The notes under the pieces were generated by a model. It searched no databases. It saw only the letters and a program-made list of their open reading frames with translations, and had not been told where the DNA came from. Below, piece by piece: positions 5,303-51,864 of a stretch of 54,557 nucleotides of DNA (positions are counted from its first letter, which is position 1; each line of letters starts with the position of its first letter). The position numbers and the translations under genes were made by a program. Source of the stretch: Escherichia phage mEp044; sequence record PP180004; one strand, given 5' to 3'.

Positions 5303-5320
5303 TATGTCATTACCTCCTGT

Positions 5321-6463
5321 TTACAAAATGGAAAATTCAGGGTAATAAACAAAGCGCCCGATCTCCCCATGATCCGGGCTGTAAATAATCACCGCTGCCA
5401 GACGCCGCGACCTCCAACCTCCATTAGTCGAATATGCATCTTTGCCCGCTAACGTGCCGTGATACTCAACAACGCCTAACGATGATTCAATCAGCCTTTG
5501 ATGATGCCAGTGCCCGCAATGAGCGTAAACCGCAGACGACTTGCCAAAGTCTTCCCGCCAGTCAGCTACGCAAGCAGACAATAAATTTTCCGGCTTTTTG
5601 ATAGTGTGCCCGTGGTGGTAAGCAAGGAATGTTTTCCCGTACTGCGTGTGGTGGACGATAGTAGGTGACACATCAACCGTCACGCGCGGTTCATCTTCGT
5701 AAAAAGCCGCCAGCGCCGCACGTAGCCAAATCATACCAGACTGGTCATGATTCCCTGATAACACCTGGATTTCCACATCCTTATGATTTAGCAACATCTT
5801 TCCTACCGCACGCCGGACAGACCGGATCGCCACATAAACAAGTTTTGCGTAGCGCGAATCGCAATCAAGAACGTGATTACTTGATGGCGTCACTGGTAAC
5901 AATCCGTCAGTGTGAAGCAGGTCGCCACCGAGAAGCAAGACCGCTTTTTCACTCATAGGAGCAGCGCCAACAGCATAATCAAAGAAGTTATTTAGCACGC
6001 GTTCAGCGATCCCAGTGTCGTAGCTCTCGCCGCATTCAGCTTTATGAGCAAGCGCGCCGATATGCAGATCAAATACCGGATAAAGGGCAAGGCTTTTTTG
6101 AAAATCAATTTCAGGCACTGGCACGGCATCCGCGCGTGGTATTTCCTCCGTGAATGCGTCGCGGGCAGCTTCCATTAGCCTTTCCATTTCATCGCGGTCA
6201 CGGGCTGTTTTAATCCAGCGCATGACCGTATTCCCAGCCTTATCGACAAGAACAGATTCACCAGTAACGCCAAAACCCGGCGCGCGGCGCGTTGATAATA
6301 AACCGCGTTTCGCCAGCTTTGCGCCCAGGCGCTCGACGTTGCGTTTTGACATGCCAAATTTTTCGGCGATCTGTTTATACGTTAAACCGTTGTTATATTC
6401 AGCGATCAATTGCTCATCGCTGATTTTTCTTTGCGACATAATGTTAATTCCTCCAGTTAACAA
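5321..6463 (-). CDS. N-terminal HTH fused to calcineurin-like metallophosphoesterase
   Basis: 380 aa; HTH LTYKQIAEKFGMSKRNVERL; phosphoesterase motifs DLHIG, GGDLLH, GNHDQ, HHGH, GHWHH. Confidence 0.7.
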   Translation of the reverse strand: MLTGGINIMSQRKISDEQLIAEYNNGLTYKQIAEKFGMSKRNVERLGAKLAKRGLLSTRRAPGFGVTGESVLVDKAGNTVMRWIKTARDRDEMERLMEAARDAFTEEIPRADAVPVPEIDFQKSLALYPVFDLHIGALAHKAECGESYDTGIAERVLNNFFDYAVGAAPMSEKAVLLLGGDLLHTDGLLPVTPSSNHVLDCDSRYAKLVYVAIRSVRRAVGKMLLNHKDVEIQVLSGNHDQSGMIWLRAALAAFYEDEPRVTVDVSPTIVHHTQYGKTFLAYHHGHTIKKPENLLSACVADWREDFGKSSAVYAHCGHWHHQRLIESSLGVVEYHGTLAGKDAYSTNGGWRSRRLAAVIIYSPDHGEIGRFVYYPEFSIL

Positions 6464-6472
6464 AATGTATAC

Positions 6473-7183
6473 CTACTTACACGCAAAAAGTTCAGATACC
6501 CAAAGCTGACCTTTAGCAGTAAATAGTGATTGCACGTAACCTTCAGGCGAACATTTTACCACTCCATAGCCTTTGTCTACGAACCACTGTTTAAACATCC
6601 GCCCACCGCGCTTAATTCGCGTATCGTACACGTCAACCTGTTCGAGTTTTTTGTTGAGTTGCGTAGCAGTCATACCCAAAGGCTTGGCAACCTGCGTTGC
6701 GTTGCGATGCTGTTCGTTTCTTACAATCGCATCACAGACAGCCGCTTTTGGCGCTAATTCCTTGTTTTCCAGCGCCAGCCGTTCAGCTTCCTTCTGTGCT
6801 AATAGTTTTTGCTCTACCTCATCCGCCCATGCGCGAGCCGCAACAACTGGGTCAGTGAAATCCGGCAAAGCTGGTTTGCGCACCTGTTTTTCAAGCTCCT
6901 GCCAGCGGTCAACAAGTCGCGCCGTAAATTTAGGACAGTTTTGAGCAACAACGATAATGCTGTCACGCTTGCCTTGTTCGCCTTCAAAAATATAGACATT
7001 AACAAACCTGTTAGGACTAAGTGATTGTTTATTCTCAACTTTCCCCATTGGGGGTAGTTTAATTACCCCTCTCTGTGCCATTCGTTCTATAGACTGTTTT
7101 ACTTTATCGTGACGATTGCCTAGTAGTTCCGCAATTTCAAAACTATTCATCCTAACACCATCAAAAACCATTAAATCACTCAT
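6473..7183 (-). CDS. Rha-family regulator with KilA-C/Ant C-terminal domain (antirepressor-like)
   Basis: 236 aa; N-terminal Rha-like EIAELLGNRHDKV; C-terminal KilAC-like region. Confidence 0.7.
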   Translation of the reverse strand: MSDLMVFDGVRMNSFEIAELLGNRHDKVKQSIERMAQRGVIKLPPMGKVENKQSLSPNRFVNVYIFEGEQGKRDSIIVVAQNCPKFTARLVDRWQELEKQVRKPALPDFTDPVVAARAWADEVEQKLLAQKEAERLALENKELAPKAAVCDAIVRNEQHRNATQVAKPLGMTATQLNKKLEQVDVYDTRIKRGGRMFKQWFVDKGYGVVKCSPEGYVQSLFTAKGQLWVSELFACK

Positions 7184-7215
7184 TGTATATACTCCGGTTT
7201 ACGTAATGTATTTGC

Positions 7216-7827
7216 TTAAACGATAATGCGCACAAACTTACAGCCCAACACTGCGCTTATTTCTTTTTCACGAATACGATCTGCTTCCGTATGCTGCGGT
7301 GTGAAATGTTGCTCCTCATCTATTTCATAGGCGATATTGTTTACAGGATCGTAGCCATCTATTCTGTATTTTCCTAGCACTGGATACTGCCTTATTAATT
7401 TAACTCCCTGTAATTGTTCTATGGTGGTTAATGCTGTTTTCTCTCTGATTCCGTTATTTCTGATTTTTTCACTTACGACGGATAAAGATGATATTGTTTC
7501 GCATAAATCATTGTATTCACTGAATTTATTACAAACTTCTTCTTTGAACCAATGTAAAAAGCGATAGTTTTTAGATTTCAATACAATATTGCATAAGTCA
7601 CATAACAACATAAGCGTTACGCCTTGTGGCTTGGGCTTAAAACCAATATTAAGCATTTCACCGTATTTGATTTTAATCAATGACTTACAGTGTCTTTTGA
7701 TTGCGCTTTGTGGTTTTATGTATCCAAGCGCCCGCGCCACATCCATTGCAACAAAAGCAGGTTTACCATCATAAATTACAGCAGTGATTTGGTTGTTATC
7801 GAAATTAAAACTCATCAACTCAGACAT
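7216..7827 (-). CDS. Bro-N domain protein fused to a Vsr/DUF559-like PD-(D/E)xK nuclease-like domain
   Basis: ORF 7216-7887 with likely start MSELMSFNF at 7827; C-terminal YRIDGYDP..IAYEIDEEQH..D.IRE...LGCKFVRI. Confidence 0.55.
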   Translation of the reverse strand: MSELMSFNFDNNQITAVIYDGKPAFVAMDVARALGYIKPQSAIKRHCKSLIKIKYGEMLNIGFKPKPQGVTLMLLCDLCNIVLKSKNYRFLHWFKEEVCNKFSEYNDLCETISSLSVVSEKIRNNGIREKTALTTIEQLQGVKLIRQYPVLGKYRIDGYDPVNNIAYEIDEEQHFTPQHTEADRIREKEISAVLGCKFVRIIV

Positions 7828-8194
7828 TGTAATTTCTCCGTAAAACGCTCTACAACGCAAAAATCCCACCGCGTAACACGTTTGCACATGTTGCAGTGTC
7901 TTATTGCGTCATAGGAGCAATCAGGTGGCTAATTTTTGATTTACAGACTGGTAGGTATGTTATGGATTGACTAGAAGGAATAAACCGCCGAACAAGGCGA
8001 CGTTAACAGCGATTGCCGCAGAGATGGCAAAAGCTAGGGCGAAAACGTGTTTACCGTCCATTTAAAAATCCCCTCTAAAACGCTATCTAACGAGCTAATA
8101 GCAAAAAGGTATGCAAGTGTAGCACCCAATGCAATTTAGCTCGCTGGTGAGCTTGCTGGGTTGGTTATTTTTGGTTTTTGTGTATCGTGGTTGG

Positions 8195-9187: not shown

Positions 9188-9207
9188 AAATATGGCCTCC
9201 TGATAAA

Positions 9208-9453
9208 CTAAAACATTAACTTATAAACACAGAAGAAGCCCGGCAGCTGGCTAATCAGGCCGCTTCTTTTCAGTTGATGCAGCGCAGATATAGTGTCACG
9301 TAACGAAATTTCGCACATTTCCGCGATCTCTTCTGGCGTTACTTCGCTTTTGCCGTTGCATCCGGCCTTTGTTGCCAGTGCAATTAAGATGAGTTTTTGC
9401 GCCGGATCATTGTTATTCAGGCGAATATCAAAAGCCTTGCGCACGTAATACAT
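9208..9453 (-). CDS. small HTH DNA-binding protein, first gene of the minus-strand early operon (Cro/CII position)
   Basis: ORF 9208-9495 trimmed to ATG 9453 preceded by AGGAGA; HTH similar to the initiator N-terminus. Confidence 0.55.
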   Translation of the reverse strand: MYYVRKAFDIRLNNNDPAQKLILIALATKAGCNGKSEVTPEEIAEMCEISLRDTISALHQLKRSGLISQLPGFFCVYKLMF

Positions 9454-9561
9454 ATTCTTTTCTCCTATGGTTAGAGTGAACGCGCGGGCGGGCATCCCAT
9501 TAGCATTAGATAGCAGTGACTGACCGCTGAACAGATCCCGCCGTTGCGTGATATTTGTTTT

Positions 9562-9595
9562 TCGCTTCGCAGCGACACCGGATTTTTAAAGAGCT
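9562..9595 (-). promoter_or_regulatory. candidate nutR-like site: boxA-like GCTCTTTAAAAAT plus hairpin TCGCT-GCGA-AGCGA on the minus strand
   Basis: boxA-like match and adjacent short stem-loop in the leader of the minus-strand operon. Confidence 0.4.
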
Positions 9596-9633
9596 TTAAG
9601 GTATGTGCCTTTTGTGCTTTCCCTTATCTTTTT

Positions 9634-9735
9634 CCTTGCATCATTGCAACTATGGCCTTACCTTGTCTGTAAGTTTACAGAATGGCGTTAACAGATCAAG
9701 GATTGAAAATTACATTTTGTGACTTGCATCAAAAT
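9634..9735. promoter_or_regulatory. immunity-region operator/promoter zone: repeated TTGCATCA half-sites (9636-9649 as TTGCA-N4-TGCAA; 9726-9733), palindrome CTGTAA-GT-TTACAG (9666-9679)
   Basis: repeats read in the 305-bp divergent region between the Cro-position gene and cI. Confidence 0.4.
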
Positions 9736-9758
9736 TTTTTCGGTTATAGGGTAGCGAT

Positions 9759-10406
9759 ATGAAAACAAAATGGTATGACTTAGCAAAACAACTCATGCGG
9801 GCGCAGGGCATGAGCCAGGATTCATTGGCTGATCTTATGGGGATAACCAAAGGCGGCCTTTCTCACTGGTTGAACGGTCGCCGTGAGCCGAATCTTGAAG
9901 ATATTGCGCGGATCATGCGGGCGCTTGGGCGTCGGCAGTTCACTGTCACACATGATGGAATGGTCATTGATGATTCTGTTTCTAACACGTTGCCGGGAGC
10001 GCCACCGCGTGATTTAGGCAGTTACCCGGTTGTTGACTGGAAGGATGTAGTAAACAATATGGAAGATGCAAGGCGATCAACATTACCACACGTTACGACT
10101 AGCGTTATTTGTTCAGATGATAGTTATTGGCTGGTAGCTAAAGGCGAATCAATGAACGCGCCGCAAGGGTTAAGCATCCCGGCGGGTACTATGATACTTG
10201 TTGACCCGCACGCGCCAGCTATTGACGGCAAGCTCGTTATAGCCCAACTGGAGGAAGGGCAGACGCCTACGTTTAAACAGTTGATTATTGATGGAGGCCG
10301 AAAACTTTTGCGTTCACTTAATCCGTTGTATCCGCCGATCCCTATGAATCCAGAATCAAAAATCATTGGCGTGGTTGTTGATGCGAAGATCGTAAACCTG
10401 CCATAA
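9759..10406 (+). CDS. cI: CI-type repressor (HTH plus LexA-like S24 peptidase domain)
   Basis: 215 aa; N-terminal HTH; C-terminal AKGESM ... K motifs of S24 autopeptidases. Confidence 0.9.
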   Translation: MKTKWYDLAKQLMRAQGMSQDSLADLMGITKGGLSHWLNGRREPNLEDIARIMRALGRRQFTVTHDGMVIDDSVSNTLPGAPPRDLGSYPVVDWKDVVNNMEDARRSTLPHVTTSVICSDDSYWLVAKGESMNAPQGLSIPAGTMILVDPHAPAIDGKLVIAQLEEGQTPTFKQLIIDGGRKLLRSLNPLYPPIPMNPESKIIGVVVDAKIVNLP

Positions 10407-10411
10407 ACACT

Positions 10412-10436
10412 AGCCGCCTGATGGCGGCTTTTCTTT
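10412..10436 (+). terminator. rho-independent terminator after cI
   Basis: 7-bp GC stem agccgcc/ggcggct followed by a T-run. Confidence 0.6.
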
Positions 10437-10529
10437 GCCTGAAAAACACCAAAACGTAAACAGAAAACGTGTTTTATCATTTAAATATCAATGACATATA
10501 AAATATTTTAAAAAAGTATACAAAATGGA

Positions 10530-10558
10530 TTGACTAGGTGTTTTACGGGGCGTATATT
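10530..10558 (+). promoter_or_regulatory. sigma70-like early promoter: TTGACT, 17 bp, TATATT, immediately preceded by a TATACAAAATGG motif
   Basis: near-consensus -35/-10 with 17-bp spacing. Confidence 0.55.
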
Positions 10559-10599
10559 GCGAATCAAAGGATGAAGCAAGGCAGGGAAAGAAGGTTACT

Positions 10600-10637
10600 T
10601 GCTCTTTAACAATCTGGTCAGCCGCTGGAAGTGCGGC
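10600..10637 (+). promoter_or_regulatory. candidate nutL-like site: boxA TGCTCTTTAACAA (10600-10612) plus boxB-like hairpin GCCGC-TGGAAGT-GCGGC (10621-10637)
   Basis: boxA matches the rrn/lambdoid boxA consensus; hairpin follows 8 nt later, upstream of the N-like gene. Confidence 0.55.
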
Positions 10638-10692
10638 AATTAACGAAGATGATTTTTATTAAGTATCATCAAGGATATAAGGAGATCAGATC

Positions 10693-10983
10693 ATGACAGT
10701 TACAATCATGTATGGCAAATGTGACAGTAAACTGAATGCCAGGGAACGCAGAAGAATAAAAAGAGAAAACGAAAGAAAATCATCACCTGCAATCAATAAA
10801 ACGGACAATGTGGATAAAGCCATTCGCTTTGCAAACGAGGAGAGATGCAAACCCAATGGCATTAAAGAACGTCGCAAAGGAGCAGTAAAATGGTATACGG
10901 AAAATGAAAGCGGCAACTACTACCACGCAACGCAACCACGCCAGTTAGGGGAAAAACCCCTTGATAAAGTCCGCTATCATTAA
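10693..10983 (+). CDS. N-like antitermination protein candidate (arginine-rich motif NARERRRIKRENERK)
   Basis: 96 aa, first gene after the early promoter and nut-like site; ARM resembles lambda/P22 N. Confidence 0.5.
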   Translation: MTVTIMYGKCDSKLNARERRRIKRENERKSSPAINKTDNVDKAIRFANEERCKPNGIKERRKGAVKWYTENESGNYYHATQPRQLGEKPLDKVRYH

Positions 10984-11013
10984 TACAAAATGTAAATAAT
11001 AGGAGGTGACATT

Positions 11014-11136
11014 ATGGTTATCGAGGCGCTTCAATTCAAACTAGCGGTAGCGGAAATGCTTCATGATGCCGAAATGTGGAGCGCCGCGAATAAAGCCTTG
11101 TATGTAGTGTTAACAGCGAAGGAGATTAAAGGGTGA
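11014..11136 (+). CDS. hypothetical 40-aa protein
   Basis: short ORF in the gap between the N-like gene and erf. Confidence 0.25.
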   Translation: MVIEALQFKLAVAEMLHDAEMWSAANKALYVVLTAKEIKG

Positions 11137-12193: not shown

Positions 12194-12208
12194 ATAAATA
12201 GGTTAGCG

Positions 12209-12836: not shown

Positions 12837-12844
12837 GGTTAATC

Positions 12845-13740: not shown

Positions 13741-13752
13741 AGGATAAATATC

Positions 13753-14373: not shown

Positions 14374-14472
14374 CATCGTGATTGCGATCACATAGATATA
14401 CATTTTGTGTTGTGATCGCGTATCCGTTTTGTAAACTGAAATCAAAAGGTTTACGGTACGGAGGAAAACAAG

Positions 14473-15668: not shown

Positions 15669-16208
15669 ATGAAAAATGATTTCGGAGGCAGCAACACGCC
15701 GAAGGAAATAAAAGACCTGTGGCAGACGCCTAAACCAGTTTTCAGGGGAATGGACCGCGAGTTTGAATTTGTCGCTGACGTTGCGGCAAACAAGGCAAAC
15801 GCGCTAGTTCCGCGATATATAACCGAAGAAATGGACACGTTGCATTATCCGTGGGGAGCGGTGGCAATGCCTGGTGAGTATGTCTGGATGAATCCGCCAT
15901 ATTCGAATCCCGGGCCATTCGTTGATAAGGCGGCGCTAGAACATCATCGAAATCACATAGGTTGCGTAATGTTATTGCCCGCTGACGTTTCTGTTAGCTG
16001 GTTTATGAACGGCATTGAGACGGCAAACGAATGCCGATTAATCACGCGCGGTCGGCTGGCGTTTATCAATGCTGCGACAGGGAAACCAGTGAGCGGAAAC
16101 AATAAAGGGAGCTTGTTTTTGATCTGGCATCCACGATGCAGACATGAATGTATTTTTACACACATAACACGTAAAGAGCTATACGCAAGAGGTGCAGATA
16201 ATGACTAG
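15669..16208 (+). CDS. dam: phage-type DNA N6-adenine methyltransferase (Dam family)
   Basis: 179 aa; NPPYS catalytic motif and WQTP N-terminal motif. Confidence 0.8.
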   Translation: MKNDFGGSNTPKEIKDLWQTPKPVFRGMDREFEFVADVAANKANALVPRYITEEMDTLHYPWGAVAMPGEYVWMNPPYSNPGPFVDKAALEHHRNHIGCVMLLPADVSVSWFMNGIETANECRLITRGRLAFINAATGKPVSGNNKGSLFLIWHPRCRHECIFTHITRKELYARGADND

Positions 16209-16698
16209 TGCGGCAGATTTACTACGAATCGCAGCGGAAACAATTGAGCAAAGAGGTAAACAAAACGGATACGACAGAAAAGAGGAAAAATCGGCGCCAA
16301 AAATAGCCACTATATACAACGCTAAGAAGGGGGCAAATTTAACACCACTTGATGTATGGGATCTGTTGATTTGTCTCAAGGAGGCGCGATTAGAGGCCAT
16401 TTTAGTTAATGGAAGCGATCCGACAGACACACTGATAGATTTAATTAGCTACAGCGCACTGAAAGCGGAGCAAGTATTAACGGAGCGTGAGAAAGAGCAA
16501 AAGGAAAAACAGGCCGCTTTTGATCTCCCTATTGGCGGATTGGTAAAAGGTGAGGCGATAACCAGTTGTAAGGGATTGCCACCTTCTATGCTTGCCCCTC
16601 AATGTGGCTGCATTCCAACTAGTGTTGGCGTGAAGTTTAATAGGGATAATGCTATTCGTGACAAGAGGTATGACCCAAATGAAAAAGGTGGCAATTGA
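16201..16698 (+). CDS. hypothetical protein
   Basis: ORF 16192-16698, start taken at ATG 16201. Confidence 0.45.
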   Translation: MTSAADLLRIAAETIEQRGKQNGYDRKEEKSAPKIATIYNAKKGANLTPLDVWDLLICLKEARLEAILVNGSDPTDTLIDLISYSALKAEQVLTEREKEQKEKQAAFDLPIGGLVKGEAITSCKGLPPSMLAPQCGCIPTSVGVKFNRDNAIRDKRYDPNEKGGN

Positions 16699-17937: not shown

Positions 17938-18096
17938 AATTTACAAAATGGCGTCATTGCGTGATGCTGATCACATAATGGCGCTTTTCACCTTGTTCTG
18001 ACGTATCCATTTTGTATACTTCAAACAAGCAAAATGCTCTTTAAAAATCCGGCAGCGCTGAAATGCGTAGAAATCACCTGAAAAGGAGAGAGCATT

Positions 18097-19529: not shown

Positions 19530-19708
19530 AAAACGAAATTAAAGATCTGCAAATAGATATTCAGCGCGATGAGCATGATTTAGAAACTGTACGACAAATA
19601 CAGGCTTTCCACATGCGAGAACTGCTTGCGCTGAAAGAGCTTGAGAGGAAGCTAGTCCAATCAATATCTGATCGTAAACGTCTGGTTGCTCGTTACGGGG
19701 GCAAATAA
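19526..19708 (+). CDS. hypothetical coiled-coil protein
   Basis: 60-aa ORF. Confidence 0.35.
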   Translation: MKNEIKDLQIDIQRDEHDLETVRQIQAFHMRELLALKELERKLVQSISDRKRLVARYGGK

Positions 19709-20430
19709 TGAATCTGGAATCAATTCTTAAATTCCACTTCCCAAAATCACCTCGTTTGTCAGATGAAAGCCGGGGCACGTCCCCTGATGCGCTTAATACT
19801 ACTGATGCACTAACTGCCGCAGGTATGGCGCAATCGCGCGTAGAGCTTGGTTACAGCGCTTTTTTAGGGAAGATGGAACTATCACAAGCAGAAAAACATA
19901 AGGCCGTAGTTTTGCTTATAGAGCGTTTAAGGGCTATGGCAAAAGACTATGAATACGTTATGGAACTGGACGAGGCCAAACGCAATGATCTCATTATTCT
20001 TATTGCCGTTTTCGCGTTTCGGGATTATTGCCAGAGTGCCGCGACGGGAAAAACTTGCCCGGAGTGCGGCGGATATAAATTTACGTTTGACGAATACGGA
20101 GAAAAACACCTTTGCAAAAAATGCAAGGGGCATGGGACAGTTCGCAATCATTGTAAACAATGCAAGGGTCGGGGCGAAGTACCGGATAAAGCAGCCAGTG
20201 AAGCGGCGGAAATGCCAGTGTTCAAAACGTGCCAGCACTGCGGCGGGCGCGGGTATCCGCGTTTCCCTGTAGATCTCGTTCGGCAGGCTGTCAATCAGCT
20301 TGTCTTTCCGGTAAGCCGATCAACGTGGTGGAAGAAATACCGCGCTTTCTATGAAGACGCCATTGCTGAATTGTTCAAAGAAGAGGCGCGTGCTGATAAC
20401 GAAATTAAACGAGTTACGAGGGGTGAATAA
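19708..20430 (+). CDS. Q: lambda-type late antiterminator Q
   Basis: 240 aa; N-terminus (ESILKFHFPKSPRLSDESRGTS...AAGMAQS...ELSQAEKHKAV) and Cys-rich FAFRDYCQSAATGKTCPECGG region resemble lambda Q. Confidence 0.8.
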   Translation: MNLESILKFHFPKSPRLSDESRGTSPDALNTTDALTAAGMAQSRVELGYSAFLGKMELSQAEKHKAVVLLIERLRAMAKDYEYVMELDEAKRNDLIILIAVFAFRDYCQSAATGKTCPECGGYKFTFDEYGEKHLCKKCKGHGTVRNHCKQCKGRGEVPDKAASEAAEMPVFKTCQHCGGRGYPRFPVDLVRQAVNQLVFPVSRSTWWKKYRAFYEDAIAELFKEEARADNEIKRVTRGE

Positions 20431-23426: not shown

Positions 23427-23442
23427 TGTGATCTGTATCACA
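23427..23442. promoter_or_regulatory. perfect CRP-type palindrome TGTGA-N6-TCACA, adjacent to a TTTACGAAATGG motif
   Basis: tgtgatctgtatcaca read directly, upstream of the 23522 ORF. Confidence 0.35.
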
Positions 23443-23521
23443 ATGTTTACGAAATGGCATTGTTTCGGCAGTGCCGTTTTGTTATATATAAGTCAAAGAA
23501 AGACGGAAGAGGAGGCAAGAA

Positions 23522-38710: not shown

Positions 38711-38865
38711 TTCTTATCCTCTTTTGCTTCCTCCGGTTAATCCGGTCTTCTGAATCCCTTTACTCTATCCCTTTCCTTTAGCCTCTTTATACAAAATGTA
38801 TTCGTTGAAGTGAAGCCATTTTGTATAAAATAGAGATCAGGATCACACTTTTACGAGGTTAAATC

Positions 38866-41214: not shown

Positions 41215-41221
41215 ACAAAAA

Positions 41222-41251
41222 CCCCGGTACAATGCCGGGGTTATCTTTATT
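41222..41251. terminator. bidirectional terminator after the tape measure gene
   Basis: hairpin ccccgg-tacaat-gccgggg with T-runs on both strands. Confidence 0.6.
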
Positions 41252-42186: not shown

Positions 42187-42358
42187 ATTGGCCCCCTTTG
42201 TTGGTACTGCTTTCTCTTCTTGCTTTCTGTATACATCTTGTTGCGTCCTGTGTGAAGCCATTTCGTAAACTGGGTATAATTCTTGTGACGAAGTTATCAT
42301 TTTTCGCGTAGAAGCGCGTAAAGATGTATGCAATATGTAACTTATGATGGGGGAAATC

Positions 42359-42912: not shown

Positions 42913-42918
42913 AAACAA

Positions 42919-42941
42919 CCCCGCGCGAAGCGGGGTTTTTC
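42919..42941 (+). terminator. rho-independent terminator
   Basis: hairpin ccccgc-gcgaa-gcgggg followed by TTTTT. Confidence 0.6.
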
Positions 42942-43082: not shown

Positions 43083-43092
43083 AATCTGTCAC

Positions 43093-43341: not shown

Positions 43342-43349
43342 GTTGCCGC

Positions 43350-43700: not shown

Positions 43701-43712
43701 TTTGTTAACCTC

Positions 43713-43868: not shown

Positions 43869-43995
43869 ATAACACCTCCGCGCCATTTTGTTAACCATGC
43901 TTCCTTTTGAGTACAATATACATATTGTAAAAAGCGCTATCAACCGTTTTGGTATGATTTAGCGTGACGTCGATCACAAATTACAAGGTGATAAA

Positions 43996-44700: not shown

Positions 44701-44702
44701 TC

Positions 44703-45434
44703 ATGGTAATGGAAGACAAAATGTTGCGTTATGCCGCCGCGCATCCGTTTGAAGAAGTATGCGGGCTGGTGATAGATAACGATTATTTTTACCCATGCTT
44801 AAACGTGTCTGAAACGCCGCACAACAGCTTTAAAATCTCGCCTGACGATTATATCAAAGCTGACGAATTAGGCGTTATAACCGCCGTTTTTCACTCCCAC
44901 ACTGACAATTCATTGGTATTGTCGGCGCGGGATCGACAACAGCAGGTTATTTCCGGGCTGCCGTGGTTTTTGTGTTCAGGTGGTAGGGTAAGAAAATTCC
45001 GCCCAGTGGCACACCTGTTAGGCCGTAAATTTGAGCACGGGAAAACAGACTGCTATTCGCTTTTCCGTGACGCCTATCACCTTTGCGGCGTGGATCTGCC
45101 TGACTTTGAGCGCCTTGATGGGTGGTGGCTGCGTGGGGAAAACCTGTATTTAAAAAACTTGCCTCTAAACGGGTTTTATCAGGTTGACGCGCAAAGCATT
45201 CAGCCAGGTGATGTGATTATCCGCCAGCCGTTTAAAGGCGCTGACCCATGTCACGCGATGATTTACCTGGGCGACAATACTGTTTTGCATCATGACAATG
45301 CCGGACTGTTAAGCCGCCGCGAGCAAATGCGGCCCGCTTATGTTCGGCAGACCAACTCAATATGGAGATCTGACAAATGCTCAAGTTTAGATTTACGGGC
45401 AATCTTCGAAGATATTACGGCAAGGTGTGTTTAA
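44703..45434 (+). CDS. K: tail assembly protein K (MPN/JAB plus NlpC/P60-like domains)
   Basis: ORF 44607-45434 with start at ATG 44703; strong resemblance to lambda gpK (RKFRPVAHLLGRKFEHGKTDCYSLFRDAYHLCG). Confidence 0.9.
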   Translation: MVMEDKMLRYAAAHPFEEVCGLVIDNDYFYPCLNVSETPHNSFKISPDDYIKADELGVITAVFHSHTDNSLVLSARDRQQQVISGLPWFLCSGGRVRKFRPVAHLLGRKFEHGKTDCYSLFRDAYHLCGVDLPDFERLDGWWLRGENLYLKNLPLNGFYQVDAQSIQPGDVIIRQPFKGADPCHAMIYLGDNTVLHHDNAGLLSRREQMRPAYVRQTNSIWRSDKCSSLDLRAIFEDITARCV

Positions 45435-45907: not shown

Positions 45908-45920
45908 CAGGAGAAAAGCC

Positions 45921-48900
45921 ATGAGTAGCGGCGGCGGCAAAGCCAAAACACCAACATTATTAAACGATAACCTGTATCATAAACAGTTTTATCGTGTTTT
46001 AGACATTCTCAGCGAGGGGCCGATATACGGCCCGGCAAACCAGAATGCGCCATTAAACAACGTAATGCTTAATGACACGCCTATCACTGACGCAAACGGA
46101 AACACATCAATTCCTGGGATTAGTATAGCCTGGCGAAACGGCACGGCTGACCAATCGCCGATTAATGGTTTTAATGCCATCGAATCAACCGTTATTGTCA
46201 ACGCAAAGGTAACTCACGACACACCAATAATAAGGACTGTTTCAGATCCAAACGTTACCCGCGTAAGGTTAAATCTTGGCGTTGATGCTCTTGTTCAGTC
46301 AGATGATGAGGGCAATCAATATAATACATCCGTTATGTTGATGGTTGATGTTAAACCGTCAACATCTTCTACGTGGTCGCTGGTTAAAGATATACACATT
46401 GGTCCCGGTAAACAAAGCGGCGAATATCTGGAAGCTCACATTATCAAAGCGCCGGATGAAAAGCCGTTTGATATTCGCGTTCGTCGCGCAACGGCAGACA
46501 GCAAAAGCGATCTTCTTCGTAATGATACGCGGTGGAGTAGCTACAGCGAAATAATCGACGATAATTTATCTTATCCTCATACCGCTGTTGCTGGCGCGGT
46601 AATTGACCATGACCAGTATACTGATACTCCTACCCGTACATATCACCTGCGCGGGCTGATTGTTGATGTTCCTGATAACTACGACCCGGAAACGCGCACG
46701 TACTCAGGTTTATGGCTTGGTGGCTTTAAAAAAGCGTATACCAATAACCCTGCATGGCTTTTCCGGTATCTGGTGAAAAATGAACGCTTCGGGCTTGCCC
46801 GCCACGCTGGTTACGTTGATGTTGACGACGGAGCATTATATACGCTTTCTCAATACTGCGACCAGTTGGTAAACGACGGTTACGGCGGCTTTGAACCACG
46901 CATGACGCTTAATGCTTACATCACGGAGCAAATGAGCGCACGAGACTTGCTGGATAACATTGCAGGTATGTTCCGTGGTATCGCGTTATGGGACGGGCAA
47001 CGCCTTACTGTGATGATTGATGCGCCACAGGATCCAATTGCCACCATTACAAATGCAAACGTCGTTGATGGCGCGTTTACTCGTTCAAGTATCGCCCGTG
47101 CAGAATCTTACAACGCCGTGATTGTGTCATGGACTGACCCGGAAAACGGTTGGGAGCAATCAAAAGAATACGTGGCAGATGATGAACTGATCGCCCGCGA
47201 TGGTTATAACGAAACCACTTTAGAGGCGTTCGGTTGTACGTCACGCGGGCAGGCGTACCGCGCTGGCAAGTGGCTGATAGAAACAGCAAAACGCGAACCA
47301 TCAAAATTCACGTTTAAAATGGCCCGTGACGCAATTCACTTCACCCCGGGTGATATTATCGAGATACTCGACAATAACCGCGCAGGCGCTCGTTTAGGCG
47401 GTCGTATCGTGGCTAATAATGGCAAGGTGATAACGGTCGATAAGGTTGATTCTGAATATATCGCGGCTGGTGACACTATCAGTTTGCTTGATAGTGATGG
47501 CAAGTTTAAAAAACACCAGATCACCGGAGTTAACGGAAACAACATCACCCTTGCAACCGCCCCCGCATGGATTCGTAACGGGACCGTATTCGCTGTGTCA
47601 ACTGAAGCGGCAAGACCTGTTCTGTGTCGAATTATCAGCGTAGCGGAAACCGAAAATAACAGCGTGTACACCATCGAGGCTGCACAGCATGATCCGCACA
47701 AGCAGGCAGTAGTTGATGAAGGTGCAATCTTCGAGGTAAACAACGACACGCTTAATCACTTCCGCGTGCCGAACATTGAAAACCTGAAGGTGTTAAATGT
47801 TGGTTCTGAAACTGTTCAATGTCGCGCTACATGGGAAACACATACGACAACGCATCGCCTGACCTTTGAGATCCGCGTATATAATGCAGACGGTCGCGTG
47901 GTGGCAAGTTATGAAACAACGAATTACCGTTATGAATTTTATGGCCTCGAAGCAGGCAGCTACACGCTTGGTATTCGCGGTCGTAATGACACTGGCATGA
48001 AGGGCGCTGAAAGTATTGTGGATCTGGTGATTGGTGCACCATTGGCCCCTGTCGGCGTTAATTGGGTTCCGGGCGTTTTCCAGGCAACAGTATACCCGAT
48101 CAGCAAAACAACCCTGACCACTGATACGGCATATGAGTTCTACTTCTCAGGTGAAAACCAGATCACAGATCCATCAAAAGTAACCACGCTGGCGCAGTTC
48201 ACCGGGCGCGGCTACCAATGGACTTTTGGCGGCATGAACACGGGTCATACCTATTACGTTTATGTGCGCACGCGTAATGCCTTTGGTGTGTCAGACTTCG
48301 TTGAAGCATCAGGCGAACCGACTGAAAACTTCGATGAAATCAGCGACTACGTCACAAAAGACGTGATTAATTCAGAACAGTTTAAGGGGATGATTAGCGA
48401 CATTAAAGATCTTGGCGACCGCGCCGACCTTATCGAAAGCGCTACAAATGACCTTAAAACTGCTACCGACAACCTCAAAACTGCAACTGATAACCTGACA
48501 AACATCACTGACGATTTGAGGGTTGACACGGACAACCTGACAAACATCACTGACGAATTGAGGACTGATACGGACGGCCTAATCACAGAAACAGGGGCCA
48601 TAAAAGCTGATACGGACACACTGAAAAAAGAGACGGAAGATCTTTATAAAAAGGTTGGGGAAAACGCCGATGATATTGGACAGCATGAGGCAAGAATAGA
48701 TTCGCTGGAGGTATCTAGCGAAAAAGTTGGCAGTGAACTAGCACAAGCAAAAGCAAGCCTGCAAAATGCGTCATTGGCGCTTATCAATAACTCACTTGCA
48801 CAGACTAACACGCGCGTAACTCTTACCGCCCAATACAAGAAAGGTAGGACAGAGACGAGGGCTGAAATTGACCGCATTGACAACGTTATTGCTGAAGAGA

Positions 48901-51407
48901 AAAAGGCAACGGCGGAATCACTGGAAACCATCACGGCAGAAATGAACACGATGGATTCTAACCTTAAAGGTCAGATCTCAAGCGTGGAACGTGCAGTGGC
49001 TGACGAGGCCAGCGCACGCGCAGAAGCCATTAACGGTGTGAACGCATCAATAAGCAATCTAGACAAGAAAACAGACGCCAGCATCAATAGACTTGATCAA
49101 GCTATTGCAGACGAAACGACCGCCCGCACACAGGCAGTCAGTGACGTTAACGCGAGTATCTCATCGCTAGACAAGAAAACTGGCGCCAGCGTGAAACGCT
49201 TGGATCAAGCGATTGCAGACGAAACCAGCGCAAGAACTGAAGCTATCAGCGGAGTGAACGCATCAATTTCCACGCTTGATAGCAAGGTAACAAGCAATGT
49301 AACGCGCATAGATAAAGCTATTGCAGACGAAACGAAGGCACGCACTGACGCAATCAGCGGCGTTAATGCAAGTATTAGCACACTCGAAGGCAACACCAAT
49401 TCAGAAGTGAAACGCCTTGATCAAGCAATAGCTGACGAGACTAGTGCCCGCACACAGGCTATCAGCGGTGTAAATGCTTCAATAAGCAATCTTGAAAGCA
49501 AAACCGACGCCAGCGTTTCCCGTCTTGATAAAGCAATAGCAGATGAAACGCAGGCAAGAAGTGCTGCAATAACAGATGTTAAAGCTGATTTAACAACACT
49601 CGAAAACAGCACAAACGCCAGCGTCAAACGTCTTGATCAGGCAATTGCCGACGAATCAAGTGCCCGCGCTGAAGCAATATCAGGCATCAATGCAGAGATT
49701 GGCAACATTGAAAATAATGTTGACAAAAACAGCGATGATATAAATCAGACAAAAGCAAGCCTGCAAAACGCGTCTATCGCGCTTATTAACAACTCAATCG
49801 CTCAAACAAACACGCGTGTTACGCTTACGGCCCAATACAAGAAAGGCCGCAAAGAAACCAACGCGCAAATTGACCGTATTGACAATGTTATCGCTGAAGA
49901 GAAAAAGGCTACAGCGGAAGCGGTTAGCGTGGTAAAAGCATCGATCACGGATCTTGATAAGAAGACTGACGCGAGCGTTTCCCGTCTCGACAAGGCTATC
50001 GCAGACGAAACAAGCGCACGCAGCGAGGCTATTAGCGGAGTAAATGCCTCAGTGTCAGCGCTAGACAAGAAAACGGATTCAAACATAAGCCGTCTTGATA
50101 AAGCCATTGCAGATGAGACAAGCGCAAGAACTGAAGCTATCAGTGGAGTGAATGCAAGTATTATCACTCTTGAAAGCAACACTGAATCTGAAGTTAGCAG
50201 GCTGGATCAGGCAATTGCCGACGAATCAAGTGCCCGCACCCAGGCTATAAGCGGAGTGAACGCATCAATTTCCACGCTTGATAGTAAGGTGACAAGTAAC
50301 GTAACCCGTATTGACAAGGCAATTGCAGACGAAACGAACGCCCGCACTGACGCGATAAGTAGCCTTAATTCATCGCTTACCAGTACGATTAACTCGAAGG
50401 TGTCTGAGGTATCAACGGCGCTTTCTACGCATGAAGCATCAAGCGCAGAAAAATTTAGCCAGATCTCAGCGTCTTTCGATTCTGTAAATTCAAGTATTAC
50501 AGAATGGTCGCAGGCTATGGCAACGGCTGACGAGGCATTATCAAGCAAAATTGATCAGCTAACAGTAACCGTTAACGGGAACACGACAGCAATAGAGACA
50601 ACATCGAATGCGCTAACCGATTTCAAGGGTAACGTTGATGCGTCATATTCCATCAAGCTGGCAACAGATAACAACGGCATGAAGTACGCTACAGGTATGT
50701 CGCTTGGCCTGACTGGTAACGGCACAAACTTTCAATCGCAGTGTATTTTCCTTGTTGACCGCTTCGTATTAATGACCGCAGCAAACGGCACATATACAAC
50801 GCCTTTCTATGTATCTAATGGCGCTATGTATGTGAAAGAAGCGTTTATTAAAAACGCATCAATAGGAGAAGCTAAAATTGCAAACGCCGCAATCACATCA
50901 GCCAAAATTGCACAGCAGATACAGTCAACTGAATTTGTTAAAGACTCAAAAGGTTGGATGATTAACAAAGATGGGTGGGCGGAGTTCAATAGCGTTACGG
51001 TGAGGGGGACTGTGTATGCTACGGACGGTAAGTTCTCCGGTTCGCTTGAGGCGAAAACCTTTATCGGTGATGTTGCGAATATGTATACAGGAGGTGACGT
51101 TAGTAGATTAAATGATGGTGTGCTAGAAAAAACAATCACATACAACGATACATCAAGTGCAGCACATAGTAGACACATCTGCGTTATGGCAAACGTCAAA
51201 GGTTTTGGTGGCTGCACGATAAACATTGGAGGTTCAGAAAAAAACCTTGCTATGAATGGAGATGAGCGTCTTGTCATGCATTCAGCGGCAATAACTACCA
51301 AGAGCGTTACAGTTAAAATTAAGGTATCCGCTCAAAATAGCAAGGGTGCATATATAAATTCGCCGACCGTCATTGTGTCGCGCGGTTCTGGTTCATTCTC
51401 AGGATAA
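45921..51407 (+). CDS. J: tail tip/host specificity protein J with an internal coiled-coil repeat expansion
   Basis: 1828 aa; N-terminal ~1000 aa resemble lambda gpJ (ISEGPIYGP, WSSYSEIID, FGCTSRGQAYRAGKWLIETAK); repeats at about aa 930-1500. Confidence 0.9.
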   Translation: MSSGGGKAKTPTLLNDNLYHKQFYRVLDILSEGPIYGPANQNAPLNNVMLNDTPITDANGNTSIPGISIAWRNGTADQSPINGFNAIESTVIVNAKVTHDTPIIRTVSDPNVTRVRLNLGVDALVQSDDEGNQYNTSVMLMVDVKPSTSSTWSLVKDIHIGPGKQSGEYLEAHIIKAPDEKPFDIRVRRATADSKSDLLRNDTRWSSYSEIIDDNLSYPHTAVAGAVIDHDQYTDTPTRTYHLRGLIVDVPDNYDPETRTYSGLWLGGFKKAYTNNPAWLFRYLVKNERFGLARHAGYVDVDDGALYTLSQYCDQLVNDGYGGFEPRMTLNAYITEQMSARDLLDNIAGMFRGIALWDGQRLTVMIDAPQDPIATITNANVVDGAFTRSSIARAESYNAVIVSWTDPENGWEQSKEYVADDELIARDGYNETTLEAFGCTSRGQAYRAGKWLIETAKREPSKFTFKMARDAIHFTPGDIIEILDNNRAGARLGGRIVANNGKVITVDKVDSEYIAAGDTISLLDSDGKFKKHQITGVNGNNITLATAPAWIRNGTVFAVSTEAARPVLCRIISVAETENNSVYTIEAAQHDPHKQAVVDEGAIFEVNNDTLNHFRVPNIENLKVLNVGSETVQCRATWETHTTTHRLTFEIRVYNADGRVVASYETTNYRYEFYGLEAGSYTLGIRGRNDTGMKGAESIVDLVIGAPLAPVGVNWVPGVFQATVYPISKTTLTTDTAYEFYFSGENQITDPSKVTTLAQFTGRGYQWTFGGMNTGHTYYVYVRTRNAFGVSDFVEASGEPTENFDEISDYVTKDVINSEQFKGMISDIKDLGDRADLIESATNDLKTATDNLKTATDNLTNITDDLRVDTDNLTNITDELRTDTDGLITETGAIKADTDTLKKETEDLYKKVGENADDIGQHEARIDSLEVSSEKVGSELAQAKASLQNASLALINNSLAQTNTRVTLTAQYKKGRTETRAEIDRIDNVIAEEKKATAESLETITAEMNTMDSNLKGQISSVERAVADEASARAEAINGVNASISNLDKKTDASINRLDQAIADETTARTQAVSDVNASISSLDKKTGASVKRLDQAIADETSARTEAISGVNASISTLDSKVTSNVTRIDKAIADETKARTDAISGVNASISTLEGNTNSEVKRLDQAIADETSARTQAISGVNASISNLESKTDASVSRLDKAIADETQARSAAITDVKADLTTLENSTNASVKRLDQAIADESSARAEAISGINAEIGNIENNVDKNSDDINQTKASLQNASIALINNSIAQTNTRVTLTAQYKKGRKETNAQIDRIDNVIAEEKKATAEAVSVVKASITDLDKKTDASVSRLDKAIADETSARSEAISGVNASVSALDKKTDSNISRLDKAIADETSARTEAISGVNASIITLESNTESEVSRLDQAIADESSARTQAISGVNASISTLDSKVTSNVTRIDKAIADETNARTDAISSLNSSLTSTINSKVSEVSTALSTHEASSAEKFSQISASFDSVNSSITEWSQAMATADEALSSKIDQLTVTVNGNTTAIETTSNALTDFKGNVDASYSIKLATDNNGMKYATGMSLGLTGNGTNFQSQCIFLVDRFVLMTAANGTYTTPFYVSNGAMYVKEAFIKNASIGEAKIANAAITSAKIAQQIQSTEFVKDSKGWMINKDGWAEFNSVTVRGTVYATDGKFSGSLEAKTFIGDVANMYTGGDVSRLNDGVLEKTITYNDTSSAAHSRHICVMANVKGFGGCTINIGGSEKNLAMNGDERLVMHSAAITTKSVTVKIKVSAQNSKGAYINSPTVIVSRGSGSFSG
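48741..50400 (+). repeat. in-frame coding tandem repeats inside J: about eleven 108-bp (36-aa) units in two blocks, each block headed by a ~180-bp duplicated segment (48741 and 49750)
   Basis: repeated peptide LDQAIADETSARTEAISGVNASIS...; attgcagacgaaac recurs every 108-109 bp. Confidence 0.8.
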
Positions 51408-51414
51408 AAAACAA

Positions 51415-51440
51415 CCCCGCATCGCGCGGGGTTTTCTTTT
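51415..51440. terminator. bidirectional terminator after J
   Basis: hairpin ccccgc-atcgc-gcgggg with T-runs on both strands. Confidence 0.6.
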
Positions 51441-51687
51441 AGTAGTTGGCTACACAGTTCGACGGGCTACCGATGCGGCGCATGTTGTGATCGAGTTCAT
51501 GACACCATTGCCCAGTATACGGCAGTTTTTCAGTGTCATAGACAAGATGACCGCTGCCATCATAGACAACATCCTGTGGAATTACTCCGCTATTAGGCAG
51601 GTTATGCAATGCGGCCTCTTTGTCAATAGCGCAACCAGTAAGAGCAACAGCCGCAGAGAACAAAACCACTTTGAACACGTTTTTCAT
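51439..51687 (-). CDS. lipoprotein (signal peptide plus lipobox LTGC), antisense between J and the tail fibre; Cor/Lom-position candidate
   Basis: 82 aa; MKNVFKVVLFSAAVALTGC lipoprotein signal. Confidence 0.55.
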   Translation of the reverse strand: MKNVFKVVLFSAAVALTGCAIDKEAALHNLPNSGVIPQDVVYDGSGHLVYDTEKLPYTGQWCHELDHNMRRIGSPSNCVANY

Positions 51688-51864
51688 TTTTGAATCCTCA
51701 TTCTTGTTGGTTCATCCGGTTTACCCGGTGGTTTAAATATCCGACAAAACCACATTTCGTATATTGATATAAGTCAATAAATACATTTTGTGTAAGCAGA
51801 AAATGCAACATAGATCACAAAATGGTAGAATTATTCCGTTAATTAACATAATGGAGTCATTGCG

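Follow-up and report, generated by a model that had tools for sequence, protein, structure and literature searches.

Phage mEp044, its repressor and the recurrent motif

The window analysed here is a 54,557-nucleotide stretch of DNA from Escherichia phage mEp044 (sequence record PP180004). At 86–94% nucleotide identity to the Escherichia phages mEp554, mEp010, mEp021, mEp013, mEp515 and MagusPhagus, its sequence places mEp044 in the mEpimmI (mEp021-like) group of temperate coliphages. Our gene map assigns 90.6% of the window to coding sequence, and intergenic DNA amounts to 5.2 kb; a 12-mer motif, TTTACAAAATGG, and its variants recur there. Probably, the phage encodes the cognate repressor itself: the motif would be an operator of the CI-like protein Rep, the product of rep. 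As a recognition sequence it falls into a known operator family, and what is new is its dispersal over about ten loci in a phage with otherwise lambda-type control by CI, N and Q.

The mEpimmI phages have been described as temperate, Nus-dependent, non-lambdoid coliphages, reported to be as frequent as lambdoid phages in E. coli isolates from the human gut and forming lysogens that are not induced by UV (Negrete-Mendez et al. 2025, PMC11893012). Immunity to the entire group is conferred by the CI-like repressor Rep021, and the group carries an N-like antiterminator with nutL, nutR1 and nutR2 as well as the exclusion lipoprotein Lpp (PMC11893012). The nearest solved structure to the window's Rep is lambda CI (3bdn). 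At about residues 88–100 of Rep, VVDWKDVV replaces the VQAG/AF autocleavage site of homologues, while the catalytic Ser and Lys are retained; the missing Ala-Gly site has already been recorded (PMC11893012). LexA boxes (CTGT-N8-ACAG) were absent from the whole window and were dropped as an alternative means of control.

Next to rep lie a small gene in the position of cro and the N-like gene (Table 1). Two inverted boxA-like copies, GCTCTTTAAAAATCCGGT and GCTCTTTAACAATCTGGT, represent nutL and nutR1 on the two early transcripts, consistent with the published group description. With nutL on the minus strand at 9577–9594, the leftward early promoter must fall between about 9600 and 9758. A scan of the N-like protein against species-representative genomes returned no match.

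A 17-bp pseudo-palindrome enriched in intergenic DNA

The 12-mer family had been proposed in a sequence-only reading of the window, and it is real, as all 17 intervals listed there hold the motif or a close variant, with coordinates accurate to within 1–3 nt. The exact 12-mer occurs only twice, at 5320 and 17940. When up to two mismatches are allowed, 27 matches are found versus 9.3 ± 2.8 in shuffled sequence, and none of 100 shuffles reached 27. No 8-mer of the window is more over-represented than the core, ACAAAATG/CATTTTGT (23 copies versus 3.4 expected from a third-order Markov model, P about 2e-12). Intergenic DNA alone contains 12 exact cores, compared with 0.47 ± 0.66 in dinucleotide-preserving shuffles of the same segments, and AT-richness is hence insufficient to explain the enrichment.

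The motif had further been described as almost only intergenic. The full motif bears this out, whereas the bare core has 11 exact copies within or at the edge of genes. These are mostly contexts in which an A-rich spacer joins a ribosome-binding site (RBS) to an ATG start codon (9765, 24301, 31234, 35150, 43698, 44716 and 20575), and such start contexts are not instances of the element. Iterative matrix refinement over the whole window drifted into RBS-AAAATG contexts of this kind and was abandoned, and we then built a 17-bp matrix (the window matrix) from 21 sites curated from intergenic DNA and checked it by leave-one-out. It gave 29 matches at ≥12 bits versus 2.3 in shuffled sequence, with 22 of the 29 sitting in the non-coding 9.5% of the window. 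Sites absent from the earlier list are 10981, 23470, 43916 and 51748, together with the weaker 10541, 17969 and 42229; among its own weaker matches are 51816–51828 and 9711–9722, with leave-one-out scores of 5.5 and 12.3. The site at 42258 counts as intergenic only under a shorter, mEp021-style gene start. Full-motif look-alikes within genes were seen at 1360, 16256 and 35914. One of them, GTAAACAAAACGGATAC at 16256–16272 in the gene 16201–16698, is almost identical to the site at 14420–14436 and might be functional.

The motif forms part of a 17-bp pseudo-palindrome, GTWWAC-AAAAT-GKMTWY, present in about 21–24 copies at about ten loci between 5.3 and 51.8 kb. The consensus of the 21 curated sites reads GTTTAC-AAAAT-GG/T-A/C-T, with A5, C6 and G12 the same in every site and hardly any variation in the AAAAT spacer. 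A layout of approximate two-fold symmetry, 6-5-6 or GTWWAC-N5-GKMTWY, in which roughly one helical turn separates the half-sites, is present for example in GTATACAAAATGGATAC (18003–18019), and the fullest copies are 6-5-6 palindromes such as GTATAC-AAAAT-GGATAC at the same position and TTATAC-AAAAT-GTATTC at 38787–38803. About nine copies, termed class B, have GGC or a similar triplet as second half-site, for example at 17939, 23445, 23470, 43879 and 51813.

Most sites form inverted or tandem pairs, accompanied by four or five singletons at gene junctions. Within pairs, the centres are 24–26 bp apart at 14.4, 23.4, 38.8, 42.2 and 10.5 kb and 31–37 bp apart at 9.7, 43.9 and 51.8 kb; at 17.9 kb the distance is 65 bp. 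The sites face either way with respect to transcription, and in the rightward early operon they run 10520+, 10985+, 14401−, 14425−, 17943+ and 18008−. At orthologous places, sites are conserved in up to 33 distinct genomes, varying by locus: the 5319 site is retained in 31 distinct relatives despite variable flanks, and both the 9673 and the 9708 site are conserved in 28 distinct relatives, with variable sequence between them.

Operators of homologous repressors

With Rep as query, IMG/VR gave 44 close relatives with repressors of at least 92% identity and three distant ones at 36–37%, and a profile search yielded 1,817 homologues; a homologue search with the 72-residue N-terminal domain alone returned only fragments of the same protein. 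MagusPhagus appeared to be a repressor-divergent relative, an impression due to its record beginning at rep. Gene neighbourhoods were inspected for seven homologues, from Salmonella, Enterobacter (two), Serratia, Providencia, Edwardsiella and a Logan metagenome contig. Overall identity to Rep among the homologues compared (IMG/VR L047–49, Salmonella L099, Enterobacter L100, Serratia L101/L106, Providencia L102 and Edwardsiella L105/L107) is 36–60%. In the distant IMG/VR repressors the N-terminal DNA-binding domain is better preserved (about 65% identical in L048, with the same MKTKWYDLAK start), and the recognition helix of L048 reads TKGAVSHW versus TKGGLSHW in the window. These phages carry three tandem sites, GTATACATAAAGTAGAT, GTATACATTTTGTCTGT and GTATACATAACGTATAA, in their cro-cI intergenic region.

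The setting of all seven inspected homologues is a classical lambdoid immunity region: cro, cII and O flank the repressor gene on one side, and some have N on the opposite side. Each carries two or three xTAC-N5-GTAx sites in the gap from cro to cI, and for the homologues compared above these are tandem and of the form GTATAC-N5-GTATxx. Further sites were found downstream of cI, by boxA, in those that were checked (L100, L101/L106 and L105/L107). The xTAC-N5-GTAx layout is present at the right and left operators, OR and OL, of seven independent prophage lineages, and also in VT2-Sakai. Individual sites come close to identity with those of the window: ATATACATTTTGTGTCT of L100 nearly matches ATATACATTTTGTGTTG at 14396, and TATACAAAATGTATAA/CTATACAAAATGTATAA of L105 nearly match the site at 38787. 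Half-site flanks vary with the recognition helix, TKGAVSHW going with GTATAC, TQGALSHW with ATTAC and TQGGVGHW with AATAC. The Cro-position proteins are unrelated, being of the HTH_3 type in the relatives and giving a weak HTH_36 match in the window, whereas repressor and site are common to the window and the prophages; the shared site thus tracks Rep and not Cro.

The CI protein of the Stx phage 933W/VT2-Sakai belongs to the same repressor family and is 38% identical to Rep. The 933W operator was defined by electrophoretic mobility shift assays, DNase I footprinting and in vitro selection as a 15-bp rotationally symmetric sequence with completely conserved A4 and C5 (Bullwinkle et al., PMC3317979). 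OR of 933W/VT2-Sakai carries AATACAATATGTACT, AATACACATTGTGCA and AGTACAGAGCGTAAT, and by sequence the operator core is the xTAC...GTAx core of the window sites.

We then built a matrix exclusively from 20 foreign operators, the sites of Rep homologues. Applied to the window, this foreign matrix gave 11 matches at ≥12 bits versus 1.9 ± 1.2 in shuffled sequence; nine are intergenic, at loci of the sequence-only reading. Dispersed sites matched in this way include 6456, 7197, 10516, 10981, 14396, 14420, 18003, 38787, 43916 and 51779. Over 20 kb around the Serratia and Edwardsiella prophage repressors, of which Edwardsiella L107 lay outside the training set, the same matrix found OR and OL only. 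Conversely, the window matrix gave 21–27 matches each in mEp021, mEp010 and MagusPhagus, and one per 20 kb in the lambdoid relatives. From the two scans it follows that the recognition sequence is common with the lambdoid relatives and that the dispersal is specific to the mEpimmI group.

Predicted promoters at the motif loci

The features are collected in Table 1. All promoters assigned to the motif loci are sequence predictions, with transcription predicted to begin near 9665(−), 10565(+), 14444(+), 18027(+), 23494(+), 38779(−), 38836(+), 42219(−), 43908(−) and 51838(+).

Table 1. Genes, nut sites and candidate Rep operator sites in the window, with scores under the foreign matrix
Feature	Position	Strand	Context	Foreign matrix (bits)
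rep, CI-like repressor, proposed binding protein	9759–10406	+	Pfam HTH_3 + Peptidase_S24	
Cro-position gene, small winged-helix protein	9208–9495	−	weak HTH_36/Crp-like HTH match	
N-like gene	10693–10983	+	gene map	
Q-like gene	19708–20430	+	gene map	
nutR (nutR1), boxA GCTCTTTAACAA	10601–10618	+	boxA-like sequence	
nutL, inverted boxA copy	9577–9594	−	boxA-like sequence	
Single site GTTTACAAAATGGAAAA	5319–5335	+	leftward replication operon junction; overlaps stop codon of upstream gene, 2 nt from helicase RBS	
Single site GTTAACAAAATGTATAC, two good half-sites	6456–6472	+	gene junction in leftward operon	17.1
Single site GTTTACGTAATGTATTT	7197–7213	+	gene junction; segment unique to window	15.9
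Site GTTTACAGAATGGCGTT	9673–9689	+	gap between Cro-position gene and rep; overlaps minus-strand −10 TAAACT of candidate leftward promoter, upstream of nutL	
Site AGTCACAAAATGTAATT	9708–9724	−	partner of 9673–9689, 36 bp centre to centre	8.1
Site GTATACAAAATGGATTG	10516–10532	+	final 3 nt are TTG of early-promoter −35; centred near −41	12.0
Weak O1-like site TTTTACGGGGCGTATAT (TTTTAC-GGGGC-GTATAT)	10541–10557	+	covers spacer and −10 of early promoter	5.8
Single site TAATACAAAATGTAAAT	10981–10997	+	gap between N-like gene and next gene; conserved	15.2
Site ATATACATTTTGTGTTG	14396–14412	−	O2 position of predicted internal promoter P14.4	15.6
O1-type site GTATCCGTTTTGTAAAC	14420–14436	−	half-site is −10 TAAACT of predicted P14.4 (TTGTGA-16-TAAACT)	12.5
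Site ATTTACAAAATGGCGTC	17939–17955	+	directly 3' of methyltransferase gene; overlaps 5' flank of terminator hairpin	0.7
Weak look-alike GATCACATAATGGCGCT, doubtful	17969–17985	+	within terminator hairpin; window matrix 13.3 bits	fails
Most symmetric site GTATACAAAATGGATAC	18003–18019	−	gives −10 TATACT of predicted P18.0, upstream of NinG and Q	16.7
Site GTTTACGAAATGGCATT	23445–23461	+	5' arm of strong hairpin; O2 position of predicted P23.4	3.5
Site TATAACAAAACGGCACT	23470–23486	−	3' arm of hairpin and U-tract; overlaps −10 TTATAT	−7.1 (fails)
Site TTATACAAAATGTATTC	38787–38803	+	over −10 TATAAA of predicted leftward cassette promoter TTCACT-17-TATAAA	19.9 (best of window)
Inverted partner TTATACAAAATGGCTTC	38812–38828	−	25 bp centre to centre from 38787; over rightward −10, at leftward −41	7.4
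Weak site GTATACATCTTGTTGCG	42229–42245	+	over −10 TATACA of predicted leftward cassette promoter TTCACA-17-TATACA	9.1
Site GTTTACGAAATGGCTTC	42254–42270	−	at −41 of TTCACA-17-TATACA promoter	5.9
Site GTTAACAAAATGGCGCG	43879–43895	−	3 nt upstream of RBS of first gene of antisense cassette	−3.7 (fails)
Site TTTTACAATATGTATAT	43916–43932	−	spacer and −10 of predicted minus-strand TTGATA-17-TATATT	17.5
Site ATATACGAAATGTGGTT	51748–51764	−	gap between (exclusion) lipoprotein gene and last tail-fibre gene	8.8
Site TTACACAAAATGTATTT	51779–51795	−	gap between lipoprotein and last tail-fibre genes	14.3
Weakest listed site GATCACAAAATGGTAGA	51813–51829	+	leave-one-out 5.5	fails

Clusters of adjacent sites overlap predicted early promoters on either side of rep, 9673 with 9708 and 10516 with 10541. 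The candidate leftward early promoter, TTGATC-16-TAAACT, takes its −10 from a half-site of 9673–9689. The site 9708–9724 overlaps the −10 of a predicted rightward promoter, TTAACA-17-TACATT, and could alternatively lie at about −40 from a leaderless promoter. Of the promoter matches in this region, TTGACT-17-TATATT at 10530–10558 is the strongest; it precedes nutR and the N-like gene, and the motif abuts its −35, as had been noted before. In the Enterobacter prophage L100, O2 and O1 at the early promoter have the same geometry as the 10516 and 10541 sites. Owing to its GC-rich spacer, the 10541 site lacks the core by which the other sites had been recognised; it is one of only eight TAC-N5-GTA sequences in the window, its AC and GTATATT are conserved, and we infer that it, too, may serve as an operator.

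In the relatives a half-site doubles as −10, because the promoter-proximal operator regularly ends in GTATAA-T or GTATAT-T. Half-sites take the place of the −10 also in the window, at 14420 (TAAACT), 18003 (TATACT), 23470 (TTATAT), 42229 (TATACA) and 43916 (TATATT). The inverted pair at 38787 and 38812, rightly placed by the sequence-only reading before the tape-measure gene, has TATAAA −10s for divergent overlapping promoters, and the 38787 site is also centred at −41 of the rightward one. The 42254 site likewise lies in the spacer of a rightward TATAAT (42275–42280) before a minor tail gene, so that the motif does precede this hexamer as described. Among promoter matches in the late region, TTGATA-17-TATATT scores best (10 of 12), and the 43916 site covers its spacer and −10; the neighbouring site at 43879 lies downstream of the predicted transcription start. 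The 51813 site possibly overlaps an extended −10 (TGGTAGAAT) before the 854-residue fibre gene. Sites had also been said to fall just upstream of ribosome-binding sites, which is true of five (5319, 6456, 7197, 10981 and 43879) and does not hold as a rule, the association with −10 and −35 elements being commoner.

The loci at 14.4, 18.0 and 23.4 kb align without gaps over 81 bp and are, by their sequences, clearly copies of one promoter–operator module, consisting of GTGAT-N4-ATCACA, 17 nt, TTGT as −35, a 16-nt spacer and the −10, with the operator over the spacer. Palindromes of the CRP consensus, GTGA-N6-TCAC, occur six times in the window versus 0.61 expected. Four are intergenic (14378–14391, 17961–17974, 23428–23441 and 43964–43977), each containing GATC and adjoining an operator cluster, and two lie within genes (45067–45080 and 47326–47339); the copy at 23427–23442, TGTGATCTGTATCACA, comes near an ideal CRP site. 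In each of the three modules, exactly 43.5 bp separate the centre of the palindrome from that of the promoter-proximal operator, and the palindrome is centred about −59.5 from the predicted start.

Two pairs coincide with RNA hairpins. At 23449–23482 a hairpin of −20.5 kcal/mol (z = −5.3) with a UUCG loop and a U-rich tail has the sites 23445 and 23470 as its arms, and the hairpin at 17950–17987 is part of a −27.1 kcal/mol fold (z = −4.6). Their counterparts are annotated as terminators, T8 in mEp010 for 23.4 kb and TERM_4 in mEp021 for 17.9 kb, and the 23470 site may be a terminator instead of an operator. The combination of GC-rich hairpin and U-tract is confined to these two loci and not seen at the others (z = +1.05 at 14.4 kb); clear terminators elsewhere in the window do not overlap motif sites.

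Several further sequences lie close to the sites. The 18-bp palindrome TACAATAT-AC-ATATTGTA at 43914–43931 overlaps the site 43916–43932 and the −10 of the best predicted late promoter, and might be bound by another regulator of ACAAT...ATTGT specificity. Between the Cro-position gene and rep, a 14-bp palindrome, TTGCA-N4-TGCAA (9636–9649), and a repeat, CTTGCATCA (9634–9643 and 9722–9731), are both distinct from the motif and may mark the site of a second regulator; the TTGC repeats are reminiscent of CII sites. An operator-like sequence in the first codons of rep, GAAAACAAAATGGTATG at 9761–9777, was rejected as a product of MKTKW coding, since the Thr codon varies among homologues.

Among the genes near the motif loci, the cassettes antisense to the late operon have a known function only for the exclusion lipoprotein (PMC11893012). 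Three near-identical bidirectional terminators (41220–41242, 42917–42937 and 51413–51433) with the common stem AACCCCG...CGGGGTT each stand 3' of an antisense cassette, which suggests that these cassettes are of one design or origin. The segment 6473–7827, comprising two minus-strand genes and the motif copy 7197–7213, had no counterpart in any of the related genomes fetched; it is a window-specific insertion into the replication operon that carries its own motif copy.

Rep as the probable regulator

The sequence-only reading had suggested a phage-wide cis-element for one DNA-binding factor and had named a phage repressor first. Our analysis supports this and narrows the factor down to Rep, on the grounds that homologous CI-type repressors of unrelated prophages have the same operator architecture, including that of 933W defined by experiment (PMC3317979), and that sites flank rep itself at predicted early promoters. 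The case is built on statistics, site architecture and its conservation, the identity of the sites with operators of repressor homologues, and their placement with respect to consensus promoter elements; from these we infer binding by Rep, firing of the predicted promoters, repression rather than activation, and the roles of single sites.

In the mechanism that we propose, Rep would bind as a dimer, through its N-terminal helix-turn-helix domain, to the 17-bp pseudo-palindrome, in which an A-tract spacer separates a well-conserved half-site from a variable one. Operators would occupy about ten loci instead of the two clusters of lambdoid phages, and pairs 24–37 bp apart might permit cooperative binding. 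One member of a pair would usually cover the sigma-70 spacer and the −10, with GTATAA or GTAAAC plus T serving as −10 hexamer, and the other would abut the −35, centred near −41. Such control would extend to the divergent promoters between the Cro-position gene and rep, to the rightward early promoter that precedes nutR and the N-like gene, and to three internal promoters of the long early operon at about 14.4, 18.0 and 23.4 kb, one of them upstream of the Q-like gene. It would also include the 5' ends of four antisense cassettes in the late operon, facing the next late gene, at 38.8, 42.25, 43.9 and 51.8 kb. The single gene-junction sites (5319, 6456, 7197 and 10981) might be auxiliary sites, anchors for looping or roadblocks. 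All these promoters would then be silenced directly by a single repressor in the lysogen. By occupying all these places, Rep would shut off every promoter that can fire independently of antitermination.

Several observations weigh against this view. About half of the sites have only one good half-site, and the class-B sites score poorly under the foreign matrix (−19 to +7 bits). A strict palindrome, TAC-N5-GTA, tried as the true motif, showed no overall enrichment (8 observed versus 14 shuffled). The AAAAT spacer is far more conserved than the spacers of the relatives and makes the motif asymmetric, for which a symmetric dimer offers no obvious explanation. The supposition that a half-site always supplies the −10 found −35 support at 4 of 21 sites versus a 13% background, which is not significant; it holds for a subset, and promoters were hence assigned locus by locus. 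A repressor centred at −41 of a near-consensus promoter has the activation geometry of lambda PRM. With the 10516 site in this geometry, repression of PR hinges on the weak O1-like site at 10541, and the sequence allows repression or activation from a −41 site alike. At 17.9 and 23.4 kb the same bases form operator-like sequence and strong terminator-like hairpins. The 44 close relatives share one repressor, so that the family offers no contrast in which motif and repressor could co-vary. Finally, the 2025 group description defines no operators, and its sole statement on the point is that Rep "may recognise different operator sequences" (PMC11893012).

Operators with a single good half-site also occur naturally in the relatives, e.g., GTATACAAATTGTCTGT. 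Possible reasons for the near-fixed, oriented A-tract are readout of DNA shape, a recent spread of modules by copying, or a second role, for instance as an UP-like element.

A further reading leaves Rep as the binding protein and widens its mode of action. We regard it as doubtful, if conceivable, that Rep is a genome-wide regulator like C1 of phage P1, which would repress at −10, activate weak promoters from −41 and act by roadblock or looping at gene-junction sites, with cAMP-CRP input at the three internal early promoters. Its operators would mark all promoters that work without antitermination, among them divergent ones at all four points at which the late operon is interrupted by antisense cassettes. 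If so, activation from −41, as by lambda CI at PRM, could include genes expressed in the prophage, such as the exclusion lipoprotein. The CRP sites 43.5 bp from the operator would then tie the timing of the Q-like gene to the nutrient state, with a repressor that is uncleavable after DNA damage.

It is unlikely that the asymmetric element, GTTTACAAAATGG(C), is the site of another phage protein, either the Cro-position winged-helix protein or an early regulator, replacing Rep or sharing its sites. The poor scores of class-B sites under the matrix of Rep-homologue operators, the asymmetry with its oriented A-tract and the weak HTH_36/Crp-like match of the Cro-position protein would fit this, and lambda-type switches normally use a second protein on the same operators, as with lambda CI and Cro. 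However, half-site and 6-5-6 layout recur by homologous repressors whose prophage Cro proteins are unrelated, and the symmetric window sites score high with the foreign matrix. No specific tie links the motif to the Cro-position protein, which may be a member of the replication module, HTH_36 being typical of replication proteins.

We hold a host factor to be very unlikely. Candidates would be Fis, a regulator of the OmpR/PhoP/ArcA type reading TGTTTA-N5-TGKWWA direct repeats, or the alpha-CTD of RNA polymerase on an A-tract proximal UP element (−46 to −38). An A-tract is indeed centred near −41 at six promoter-like sites, and CRP-like palindromes stand beside several clusters, where host factors may act. 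The motif may resemble the boxes of PhoP (TGTTTA-N5-TGTTTA) and ArcA, the Fis consensus and AAAAAARNR, the proximal UP subsite; the elements of IHF, TyrR, HipB, GadE, sigma-32 and sigma-S were poor matches by eye on the site list and were dropped. Yet the high information content and the very similar copies are atypical for Fis or UP elements, and many sites lack promoter-like sequence downstream, being located at gene junctions or past predicted starts. Moreover, the site type follows the phage repressor family across genera, exactly at OR and OL, and lambdoid relatives of the same hosts have no dispersed copies. A host global regulator and a phage-specific promoter element, both considered in the sequence-only reading, are less supported than a repressor also in view of the two orientations, the inverted, tandem and single arrangements and the success of the foreign matrix in finding the sites.

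Least likely of all, the copies would need no dedicated trans-factor and be copied promoter or terminator building blocks (−10-like hexamers after a T-tract, A- or U-tracts flanking hairpins) or an RNA hairpin element, as the folding of inverted pairs (23.4 kb, as above; z = −5.8 at 38.8 kb; 17.9 kb), the terminators annotated at the equivalents of 17.9 and 23.4 kb, the −10-like hexamers ending the reverse complement of the motif and the three paralogous modules might suggest; against it stand the unstructured tandem pair at 14.4 kb, the singletons, both orientations relative to transcription and the conservation of the motif amid variable flanks and inter-site spacers, and it leaves the identity with the operators of homologous repressors unexplained.

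With Rep as the probable binding protein, the analysis yields an operator consensus and about two dozen predicted Rep sites. Rep is predicted to control directly about ten promoter regions instead of two, among them promoters of antisense, "moron-like" cassettes and restart promoters in the structural block. If confirmed, this would help to explain how two operons, the long early one with its multiple terminators and the interrupted late one, stay silent in the prophage, and would offer a handle on induction in a phage group that is not induced by UV.

Comparison with known systems

The closest likeness in protein and recognition sequence is to 933W/VT2-Sakai CI and its relatives in Salmonella (epsilon34-type), Enterobacter, Serratia, Providencia and Edwardsiella, which are homologous repressors of HTH_3 and S24 type at 36–60% identity. 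The window shares with this group the rotational xTAC-N5-GTAx layout, the half-site doubling as −10, and the placement of one site over the −10 and another abutting the −35. In contrast to the 933W-type phages, which have three sites in OR and two or three in OL only, the window has about ten loci spread over 46 kb; the lambdoid confinement of operators to OL and OR is not seen. The window differs from 933W-type operators also in its nearly fixed AAAAT spacer and its many sites with one good half-site, and Rep differs from 933W-type repressors in having no Ala-Gly autocleavage site (PMC11893012).

L5 stoperators, 13–14 bp long, are asymmetric, bound by a monomer and found in a single orientation relative to transcription. 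We looked for an orientation bias of this kind among the window sites and found none. Cluster A mycobacteriophages carry many genome-wide stoperator copies of the L5 gp71 type, several of them in short intra-operon gaps (PMC9283540, PMC6550527). In part, the window sites at gene junctions next to an RBS (5319, 6456, 7197, 10981 and 43879) are similar. Unlike stoperators, however, the window sites are mixed in orientation and mostly paired at promoters, and the repressor is of a different family.

The C1 repressor of P1 binds asymmetric sites as a monomer. It has 22 operators with a 17-bp asymmetric consensus of the ATTGCTCTAATAAATTT type (PMC8546580). Rep is unrelated to C1 in sequence, being of the lambda-CI type with HTH_3 and Peptidase_S24 domains, and the window motif is unrelated to the P1 consensus (PMC8546580). 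P1 has the accessory proteins Lxc (Bof) and Coi, of which none was identified in the window, and mEp044, unlike P1, also uses N-like and Q-like antitermination (PMC11893012). What the two would have in common is one immunity repressor with many unlinked, genome-wide operators that overlap the promoters of diverse operons. By this analogy, the dispersal in the window would resemble P1 C1 more than lambda, and the arrangement, if confirmed, would be that of a lambda-type CI protein running a P1-like distributed regulon.

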